Assembly (NCBI RefSeq): GCF_053078305.1
Contig: NZ_CP166879.1
DNA: 64,000 nt
Strand: one strand, 5' to 3'
This document shows positions 19,673 through 25,528 of this stretch, piece by piece. The number at the start of each line of letters is the position of its first letter. Within the stretch, counting starts at the first letter, position 1. A program made the translations under genes and the position numbers. The notes under the pieces were generated by a model. That model searched no databases. It was not told the origin of the DNA and was given only the letters and a program-made list of their open reading frames with translations.

Positions 19673-22600
19673 TTAGAACGTTTTCTTAAAGTTCAGCATC
19701 ACGCCTTTGTCGCTGATGCCGTCCTCTTTCCAGTGATACGCATCCAGATTCAGCGAACTTTCTTTGCTACTGTACTTCACGCCGACGCTCGCCAGGCTGT
19801 TGATACCGCCGCCCTTCTGACCGTCATCGACGTTAAAGTGCTGGCTGCCTGCCCCTGCAAGGCTTGCCGTGCGCTGGCTCTTGCTGTAGCTCAGGTTCGG
19901 CCCGCCTTCCAGCGTCGCATTCGCGCTCCAGCCGCCTTTCCCTGCGTAGTCCAGTTTCAGCCCGACGATGCTGTCCACCGCCGTTTCGCTGCCGCTGTTC
20001 ATGCTCAGGTTAAAGTCTCCGGCATTGCGCTCCTGATAGCCGCCTTCCAGCGTGTGACGCAGTTTCACTCCGGCGTACGGGGTGATTTTCAGCCCTTCGC
20101 GCGGTTCAAAGGTTTTTGCCCCTTCGCTGCGGAACTCCAGGTACTGCTGTTTCACATCCGTGTCTGCCGTTTTGCTGACGTCGCCGTAAGCCACCGAGCG
20201 GCTGCTGTCGAGGTTATGCACGTCATAGCGCAGGGCGTTGTTCCAGTTCATCCCGTTGTCGAAGAACATCTGGTGCTTCAGGCCGAAGAACTGGCTGTAA
20301 CCACCGGTTACGCCGTTGTCGCCCGCTTTCTGCGCACCGTCGCCATCCAGACGGGCGATACCGTACTCCAGACTCAGGCTCTGGCTTTCGCTCAGGTCAA
20401 CGGTTTTACGCAACGCCAGCATGTCGTACTCGGTGTTATTTCCGAGTTCAGCACGCGGGTCGCCTTTCGCCACCACGTTAAACGCCAGACCGTTGCCCAT
20501 CTTCGGCGCGGCGTCCGCCAGCATGCTGAAGCGGTTGCTCAGCACGCGCGCCTCGCGGAATACCGTGGTTGCCTGGCTGCCGCTCACCTGCTTCAGGGCG
20601 CTGTTCAGTTCGGCAGTAGTGCCGACGTTCAGGCTGGTATACAGCTCGTTGTTGGTGTAACCCGCATCCAGTGCCTTCGCCACATCGTTCACCGAAGCAT
20701 CGGTCGCCACATCGGTGTAGGCGTTTTTGCTCATGGTGACGTCAACGTTGCCGCTGGCATCGGTGCTGCCTTTGGCGGTCCACACCACAGACGTTGAGGT
20801 GATGGCATCGGCGTCGGTCAGGTTGCTGCCTTCCACCACGTTGTCGAAACTGACCGTGGTGTCTGCCGTACCGGCGGCGAAACCGGTGTTGATCCCGACA
20901 CCGTTCATGCTGGCGTTGTTGACCTTGAGCTTACCGGCGCTGCCGTCAACGTTGGTACCGACCACATAACCGTTGAGGTTGTTGCTACCGCTGCCAGTCG
21001 CATCTCCCCCTGTTGTTACGCCACCAGAACTGGTGTTCGGCACTTCCGGCAACGTGTAGTCGGTGTAATGCACTTCGGTATTATTACCGTTGTTGCCGTT
21101 CACCCCTTCCACGTTCACGCTGTCGCCCTGCTTAATCAACCCGGAACCGGTCACGCCATCGGCAATCACCACGGTACCGTTGTTAACGATATGGCCTTGT
21201 GTTCCCAACACACTGAATGCAAAGGAATCGTTAGCATAGATATTAATCGTGCCGTTGTTCTCGATCACCGCGTCTGCGGTAGCGTTGGCATCCAGTTGCA
21301 TACCAATTAACCCGGTATCGGTGGTACCTTCGGTGCCGAGATTGATAACGCCGTTGTTAACCAGTTGTGCGTTTTTATCACCTTCCATCGCCACGGCATT
21401 GTTGCCGCTGATGTTCATCACGCCATCGTTGAGGGCAACATAGTTGTTGTGGGTGAATTTAACTGCGCTGGCGTTGTCTTTATCGAAGTTAATCACCCCG
21501 CCATCCTGGTTCCACAGGAAGGCATCGCTTTCTGTCGCACCAGCGGTACTTACCGCCACAGTGACTTTCGCATCCACCACGCCCTTGTTAATAAACTGGC
21601 TGGCGCCGTCGTCATAGTGAATAGCGCCCGCGCCAAGTGCGGCATCCAGCGTCATTTCACCGGTGTTATATAACGTGGCGTTAGCATTGCTTCCCTGGAA
21701 GCGAATGGCGTTTTTACTGTTATCAAGGATGAGCTTGCCGCTGTTGTTGAACGTTGATTGGTCGTCAATATCCAGCGTCCCGGCATTGTTATTTTCATCC
21801 TGATAACCCATTTTCCAGGTCCCCGCGTTATTCACCACCGCAGAGTTATAGAGAATGGCACCTTTACGCGCCTCGCCGCCTGCAAGGTTATTGAATACCG
21901 CATCGCCCTGAGCGTTAACGCGCGCCGACGCAATACCGCTGTTATTCACCGTACCATCGTGAAGTTGTAAAGTTGACAGGGAACCGGTGTTATTAATTAC
22001 CGCGTTGCTGTTTTTCTCAATTTTTACGACGTCATTAAGCGTTCCGTTGTTATTGAAGGTTCCTCCTTCCAGAGTCACCGTGTTCAATACACCTTCATTG
22101 GTTAACGCACCGCCTTCATTCACGACGATGGCTGAGCTAATGGTTCCGCTCGACTCGTTAACCAGCGCACCATTTTCGAGTATCCTGATCGTTCCATTTT
22201 TAACAGCACCCGCACTGGTGACATCCCCGTTGATAATCGCACCTGACGATAATAATACGGTCTCACCCGCAGAACTTAATACATCGCCATCATCATATAA
22301 ATCGGCAATATAATTATCCGTTGGATTATATTCATCGGCCCCCTGGCAAACGCCAAAGGTACAAATTGTGCCATAGTTGATAATAAGCCCAGTGCCATCG
22401 TTATAGAATGCCTGACCATTTTCCGCGTTAATGTTGATTACGCCTGTCTGGTCATTAATGGCGGTGCCTTCGTGATAAACCGCCATGCCGACGAGTTTAT
22501 TCACACCGAGAGAATCGTTGTAATTTTCATTTTTCTCCAGGTTGATGGTTCCCTGGTTAATGACCGTGTTGGTATTACCATACGCCGCCATCCCCGCACC

Positions 22601-25528: not shown

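Follow-up and report, generated by a model that had tools for sequence, protein, structure and literature searches.

A described relative of the gene considered here is bigA of Salmonella enterica, whose product is annotated as a 'surface-exposed virulence protein' and is modelled in NCBIfam as the autotransporter adhesin BigA (NF033178). In a survey of autotransporters published in 2012, the passenger of BigA was described as AIDA-I-like and its barrel as NalP-type (PMC3419190), and a 2026 preprint includes BigA among bioinformatically identified candidate adhesins (PMC13228587); other papers on BigA use the annotation name. In Escherichia coli, ydbA has been described as an autotransporter pseudogene in MG1655 and as full length in about 42% of phylogroup A genomes (2016; PMC4951805). 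The present analysis concerns ydbA in a stretch of 64,000 nucleotides (nt) of contig NZ_CP166879.1, from RefSeq assembly GCF_053078305.1, the whole of which is referred to below as the window. A first-pass annotation, made by a model from the letters of this DNA, had regarded the role of the encoded protein as largely uncharacterised, and the literature that we searched indeed contained no paper testing what YdbA does and none addressing the mechanism of BigA.

It is very probable that the window protein belongs to the classical monomeric autotransporters (type Va), within the BigA/YdbA family, and that its gene is an intact and selectively maintained E. coli ydbA allele. Translation of the minus strand from the ATG at 25528-25526 stays open until the stop codon at 19673-19675, the only one in the frame; the product begins with MQRKKLLSVCVAMALSSQTWA and ends with NFKKTF (...MLNFKKTF). 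Retranslation therefore reproduced the coordinates, the length of 1951 amino acids (aa) and both end sequences given by the first-pass annotation, which had left the strand unstated and had named an internal stop as grounds for abandoning its reading. The longest open reading frame (ORF), which starts from an upstream ATG, covers 19673..25567 of the minus strand (1964 aa in the ORF listing), and the start at 25528 is supported because an AAGGA Shine-Dalgarno sequence lies 7 nt upstream of it. Coding on the plus strand of the interval was rejected, as its translation is full of stops, and a frame of 5.9 kb cannot be open by chance.

The whole protein was scanned against Pfam and NCBIfam, with Pfam scans over aa 1-1000 and aa 777-1951, and folds were predicted with AlphaFold2 (AF2), the confidence of which is given as the predicted local distance difference test (pLDDT). 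The parts of the gene, from the whole coding sequence through the successive parts of the protein, are the following.

19673..25528, minus strand: ydbA coding sequence, 1951 codons plus the stop at 19673-19675; exact protein WP_044192109.1
25466..25528, minus strand: Sec signal peptide, aa 1-21, with a KK n-region, a hydrophobic core and a T-W-A / A cleavage motif, read by inspection
25349..25408, minus strand: invariant cysteine pair C41-P42 ... C60 (CPxxxxxL...L..C), invariant columns of alignment A1
25265..25330, minus strand: second hydrophobic segment, Ala/Gly-rich, aa 67-88, followed by an acidic/His-rich stretch without Lys or Arg
24872..25231, minus strand: tandem array of a 30-bp unit present in 11.8 copies (24872-25222), which codes for (PVPPDDGGDT)x12 at aa 100-217
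24617..24859, minus strand: BigA_N beta domain (PF25784), aa 224-304, Pfam E=5.5e-32 over the full model length, AF2 pLDDT ~90
21128..24616, minus strand: passenger, aa 305-1467 (~1160 residues), predicted beta-solenoid at aa 305-430 and 1352-1467
20984..21127, minus strand: G/N/S/T-rich linker, aa 1468-1515, low confidence (pLDDT ~24)
20720..20971, minus strand: BigA_beta sandwich (PF25783), aa 1520-1603, Pfam E=7.5e-25 over the full model length, strands in the AF2 model
20510..20695, minus strand: helical linker, aa 1612-1673 (AF2), ending in a long helix (aa 1651-1673) that directly precedes the barrel and is predicted to plug its pore
19676..20485, minus strand: C-terminal 12-strand beta-barrel, aa 1682-1951 (Pfam PF03797, AF2, Foldseek)

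The order of parts is thus signal peptide, cysteine pair, second hydrophobic stretch, decapeptide repeats, BigA_N, solenoid passenger, BigA_beta, helical plug and barrel. The signal peptide proposed by the first-pass annotation has the expected basic n-region and hydrophobic core; MQRKKLLSVCVAMALSSQTWA is predicted to be cleaved before AD, and small residues occupy positions -3 and -1 in nearly all members of alignment A1, which gathers 13 diverse members of the family, among them both E. coli alleles, E. albertii, Citrobacter, [Enterobacter] lignolyticus, Rahnella and Budvicia. The passenger fits its description in the first-pass annotation as very long and rich in Gly, Asn and Thr, with a measured composition of G 13.9%, N 11.9%, A 9.2% and T 9.1% over aa 305-1467; it contains the closely spaced Cys1056 and Cys1061, and the BigA_3rd (PF27417) and BigA_4th (PF27415) domains lie within it according to precomputed Pfam matches on the identical database protein. 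At the C terminus, the Autotransporter beta-domain PF03797 was recognised at aa 1723-1922 (E=7.1e-18), and the terminal Phe is invariant in alignment A2. In sequence and model the window protein has the elements by which a type Va autotransporter is recognised, namely a signal peptide, a predicted 12-strand barrel, a preceding helix predicted to act as plug, a C-terminal aromatic residue and a passenger that is beta-helical where modelled, and it has those of the BigA/YdbA family, namely BigA_N, BigA_beta between passenger and barrel, and BigA_3rd/BigA_4th. Neither AIDA-type repeats nor a pertactin-like or autochaperone Pfam domain was found over aa 1-1000 or aa 777-1951, which sets the protein outside the AIDA-I type (Ag43, AIDA-I, TibA).

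The AF2 model of the last 600 residues, built from a 12-sequence alignment, contains solenoid rungs, the disordered G/N/S/T linker, the beta-sandwich, helices with the long one at aa 1651-1673, and twelve long strands running to the final Phe. Searched with Foldseek, the modelled barrel matched the translocators of EstA, EspP, NalP, Hbp, BrkA and AIDA-I with E values from 1e-8 to 1e-4; NalP gave the best template modelling (TM) score (0.70), and the AIDA-I barrel ranked 49th among the fold matches. The C-terminal barrel of the first-pass annotation thus agrees with Pfam, with the predicted strands and with the Foldseek matches, and a structure prediction devoid of a translocator, which it had named as contrary evidence, was not obtained; the modelled parts of the passenger are plain beta-solenoid. 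Compared with type Va autotransporters having solved parts (the NalP, EspP and EstA translocators; the UpaB, pertactin and Ag43 passengers), the window protein shares the predicted 12-strand barrel, the helix preceding it, the terminal aromatic residue and the beta-solenoid, but it differs in the extra beta-sandwich before the linker and in its unusual N-terminal module.

With Salmonella BigA, the window protein shares BigA_N, BigA_3rd/4th, BigA_beta and the barrel, as well as a coding variable-number tandem repeat (VNTR) between signal peptide and passenger. The ydbA repeat has in fact the position of the bigA VNTR STTR3, a locus of multilocus VNTR analysis (MLVA) (PMC5183578), and since the lengths of relatives mostly step by 10 residues (1861, 1871 ... 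1951, 1961), its copy number varies between strains. However, the window protein scores 1099 bits against NF033178, an 'exception' model with a cutoff of 3400, with the C-terminal third as the best-matching stretch; the protein is therefore related to BigA proper but distinct from it. Its identity to an NCBI-named BigA protein (P0138) is 47% over aa 1-683.

The genomic position agrees with the YdbA identity proposed by the first-pass annotation. The gene order ynbA-ydbD-pdxI-[gene]-ydbL-ynbE-ydbH places the frame between pdxI (ydbC) and ydbL, which is the position of ydbA in E. coli, immediately upstream of pdxI (ydbC)-ydbD-ynbABCD. Moreover, the adjoining 12.9 kb (hrpA-azoR-ynbDCBA-ydbD-pdxI) shows 99.7% identity with two E. 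coli chromosomes, those of ES5 and 1504D004, and has matches in 5421 of the 5426 complete E. coli genomes. The tynA-fea-paa (phenylacetate) island, which in K-12 lies between ydbL and ydbA (comparison region L002 1-5231), is absent from the window and from O157:H7; without it, ydbL is about 400 bp upstream of ydbA in the window (25568-26340), as in O157:H7.

The annotation of K-12 MG1655 shows ydbA as a pseudogene in two partial pieces (b1401/b1405) parted by the transposase genes of the insertion sequences (IS) IS2 and IS30, and the first-pass annotation was thus right that the gene is split there. Both loci lie next to pdxI (ydbC), immediately on its upstream side, and their downstream DNA shows 87% identity. 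They also share the succession of signal peptide, Cys pair, hydrophobic segment, D/H-rich and Pro-rich region, BigA_N, solenoid and barrel; different from the intact window copy, the K-12 gene has only a short Pro-rich tract, extra passenger repeats and the IS2/IS30 interruption. When the IS elements are removed, the K-12 frame is open and encodes 2007 aa that are 54% identical to the window protein. Per 100 residues, identity to K-12 is 87-97% over the last ~550 aa and 16-66% over aa 1-1400; in the DNA, the match to K-12 is confined to the final 31% of the gene, at 85%, and synonymous divergence (dS) in the passenger is saturated. Furthermore, the K-12 allele has an intact counterpart of its own, the protein P0148, which shares 94.7% identity with the reconstructed K-12 sequence. 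In view of this overall identity and of the separate intact counterpart, the first-pass annotation was not right to take the window protein for the functional ancestor of the K-12 pseudogene. Judged by these alignments, the window allele is instead a separate, old allele class, and at least two deeply diverged classes occur at ydbA. K-12 is a poor reference for this locus, and restoring K-12 ydbA would not recreate the window protein.

The O157:H7 gene (WP_001303278.1 + WP_001002001.1) belongs to the same allele type, with 94.7% nt identity over the full length. It is inactivated by a single CAG-to-TAG nonsense mutation, and by neither a frameshift nor an insertion, at O157 codon 1012, which corresponds to Gln1062 of the window protein (PV15-279, L003 7073-7075) and splits ydbA into annotated products of 1011 aa and 819 aa. 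It further carries deletions of 147 nt and 3 nt, together equal in length to five repeat units, and an insertion of 9 nt; all indels with respect to O157:H7 are multiples of 3. The ratio of nonsynonymous to synonymous divergence (dN/dS) is 0.07 with respect to ES5, 0.09 for the O157:H7 allele on either side of the stop, 0.11 for K-12 over aa 1-1400 and 0.06 for K-12 from aa 1401 to the end. Since the values lie between 0.06 and 0.11 in every comparison, the frame has long been maintained by purifying selection, and its known lesions are of recent date.

Open ydbA frames of 1951 codons also occur in ES5 (L001 6001-11895; 99.2% aa identity to the window protein) and in 1504D004 (L004 21960-27815). 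With respect to ES5, 80 of the 81 nt differences fall in ydbA nt 1500-3000 (window 22529-24028) and one at ~4500, the rest being identical, and this clustering suggests a recombination patch in the passenger. The RefSeq annotation pipeline PGAP splits the ES5 and 1504D004 frames, either into two pieces labelled 'incomplete; partial in the middle of a contig' or into a 712-aa coding sequence and a partial pseudogene. It follows that pseudogene counts for ydbA that rely on annotation are inflated, and the RefSeq annotation of intact copies is unreliable. A further relative of the K-12 type (P0144, 1022 aa) keeps the N-terminal module and the C-terminal barrel and shows an apparent natural in-frame deletion of about half the passenger.

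As regards what is already known, the exact 1951-aa sequence is deposited (WP_044192109.1 / KFD74254.1) and occurs on 6 contigs; its cluster at 90% identity counts 75 members. Full-length relatives in E. coli number more than 100, with lengths of 1776-1986 aa and one cluster of 1619 sequences, under the UniRef/NCBI name 'BigA/YdbA N-terminal beta-barrel domain-containing protein'. The protein is already deposited and named, its family domains are curated in Pfam, and the literature records full-length ydbA as common outside K-12.

By analogy with the established type Va pathway, from which we infer Sec export, insertion by the beta-barrel assembly machinery (BAM), C-to-N threading and solenoid folding, the N-terminal signal peptide would take the preprotein through Sec, and the C-terminal ~270 residues would form a 12-strand outer-membrane barrel via the BAM complex, aided by the beta-signal with its terminal Phe. 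The helix preceding the barrel would plug the pore, and the ~1600-residue passenger would thread to the cell surface from its C terminus to its N terminus, where it would fold as a long right-handed beta-solenoid and stay attached, with the beta-sandwich at its base and BigA_N and the Pro-rich spacer at its far end. Given that no catalytic domain was found and that the passenger resembles those of adhesins, the protein is most likely a surface adhesin or an aggregation/biofilm factor. A hypervariable passenger and a Pro-rich spacer of variable length would fit an exposed structure under selection by the immune system or by phages.

Several points weigh against an intact, functional type Va autotransporter. 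Beyond the open frame, its locus and domain content, the predicted folds, the purifying selection and the relationships between alleles, all of which the analysis shows, secretion, surface display, an adhesive role and silencing are deduced from sequence, models and analogy. Sequence searches of PDB chains with the whole protein, with its last 375 aa and with a profile of the last 600 aa returned no significant translocator homologue, the sole match being a weak one to a solenoid (Fap2 9qe7, E=0.005), so that support for the barrel consists of Pfam and the predicted fold. The AF2 confidence for the barrel is moderate (mean pLDDT 67), and the solenoid models span aa 305-430 and 1352-1467, with the middle ~900 residues (aa 431-1351) outside them. 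The inactivated O157:H7 allele and the IS-disrupted K-12 allele indicate that the gene is dispensable in some lineages. Finally, the standard type Va model has no place for the second hydrophobic segment, although the family conserves it.

This last point leads to the explanation that best survives beside the preferred one, although we consider it unlikely: a non-standard topology in which a disulfide loop, the second hydrophobic segment and the Pro-rich spacer keep the N terminus tethered to a membrane or in the periplasm, possibly in order to delay or check the biogenesis of so long a passenger, or to anchor it a second time. The N-terminal layout is the same in all the aligned members, where the signal peptide is followed by the CP...C pair, the hydrophobic stretch at aa 67-88, an acidic, Gly- or His-rich stretch devoid of Lys and Arg, and Pro-rich repeats; no member departs from C41, P42 or C60, and conservation extends to W71 and G75. 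The module (aa 41-88), which no Pfam domain covers, is also restricted to the BigA/YdbA family, as a HMMER scan of 1.84 billion representative proteins gave 57 matches, every named source of which belongs to the Enterobacterales. The conservation, the family restriction, the hydrophobicity of the segment (Kyte-Doolittle 1.5-2.1 over 19 residues) and its acidic, Gly- or His-rich flank without Lys or Arg all speak for a tether. However, the summed Hessa-scale free energy of the segment (+0.4 to +4 kcal/mol) is borderline or unfavourable for membrane insertion, and the region has an AF2 pLDDT below 50, AF2 having yielded no usable structure for aa 1-220. Moreover, a true stop-transfer segment after a cleaved signal peptide would leave the passenger in the cytoplasm.

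Two simpler views of the second hydrophobic stretch were rejected. It is not the real or an extended signal peptide, as a canonical cleavage motif occurs in the first 21 residues of nearly all relatives and the two stretches are ~45 residues apart; and it is not a plain stop-transfer anchor of the inner membrane, as the passenger would stay cytoplasmic and its C-terminal flank has no positive charges. Because stop-transfer would strand the passenger in this way, the stretch presumably crosses Sec, and its role may be a biogenesis delay, a tether or nothing special. It is possible to speculate, with little confidence, that the BigA/YdbA family has a previously undescribed N-terminal device, in which a disulfide loop (C41-C60), a hydrophobic helix (aa 67-88) with an acidic flank and a variable Pro-rich spacer would tether the N terminus of the ~1600-residue passenger. 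If true, biogenesis would pass a checkpoint of the kind that extended signal peptides provide, or the autotransporter would be looped and anchored at both ends; the repeat number would then set the reach of the tether. As a discovery the locus matters little, and the module is the only thread worth following; the intact window allele, N-terminal module included, would be a suitable clone for display, adhesion and biofilm work.

It is highly improbable that the frame is open by chance, the gene being a dispensable or decaying relic that yields no functional product and is turning into a pseudogene, as it did in K-12 and O157:H7. Such a fate would accord with the independent disruptions (IS2 and IS30 in K-12, CAG-to-TAG in O157:H7), with the occurrence of any megablast match in only 2532 of the 5426 complete genomes (the window allele class reaching at least 80% coverage in 367), and with an upstream region whose 27% GC suggests silencing. 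However, the low dN/dS in every comparison, including both sides of the O157:H7 stop, marks the lesions as recent, the exact protein and its large clusters of full-length relatives are those counted above, and all the indels with respect to O157:H7 preserve the frame.

The weakest explanation, that the passenger is an enzyme or toxin (a protease, esterase or cytotoxin, with precedents in the serine protease autotransporters of Enterobacteriaceae (SPATE) and in NalP-type and EstA-type autotransporters), can draw on the clustering of the BigA barrel with NalP-type proteases (PMC3419190) and on NalP as the top TM-score match, but it is very unlikely, as no peptidase, lipase or other catalytic domain appeared in the whole-protein Pfam/NCBIfam scans, which returned only BigA_N, BigA_beta and Autotransporter, the modelled parts of the passenger are plain beta-solenoid, and the BigA passenger has been called AIDA-I-like, that is, adhesin-like (PMC3419190).

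The putative expression signals of the intact ydbA allele are listed below.

25695..25722, minus strand: best sigma-70-like promoter match, TTGAAG-16-TATAAT, predicted from consensus match only
25536..25540, minus strand: Shine-Dalgarno AAGGA, 7 nt before the ATG, read from the sequence
19621..19653, minus strand: intrinsic terminator, ACCGCAAC...GUUGCGGU stem followed by U6, dG -22.8 kcal/mol, z -3.0

The sigma-70-like match lies in the AT-rich region upstream of the gene (25529-25960, ~430 nt, 27% GC), and ydbA would form a monocistronic unit with its own terminator. From the base composition of this region and the monocistronic arrangement, ydbA is probably silent in ordinary laboratory culture. 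The K-12 paaY/ydbA region appears in a promoter-island table, in the H-NS section of the paper concerned (PMC3661553); the upstream regions of the window and K-12 genes, though both of 26-27% GC, have no detectable similarity, and therefore regulatory data from K-12 are not directly transferable to the window allele.

An Rfam scan found no RNA family at the ydbA locus; its matches elsewhere in the window, none of them near ydbA, are the small RNAs expected in E. coli, that is, sok, RydC, MicC, FnrS and McaS (window 1459-1610, 2170-2233, 34900-35020, 39831-39948 and 43326-43421).

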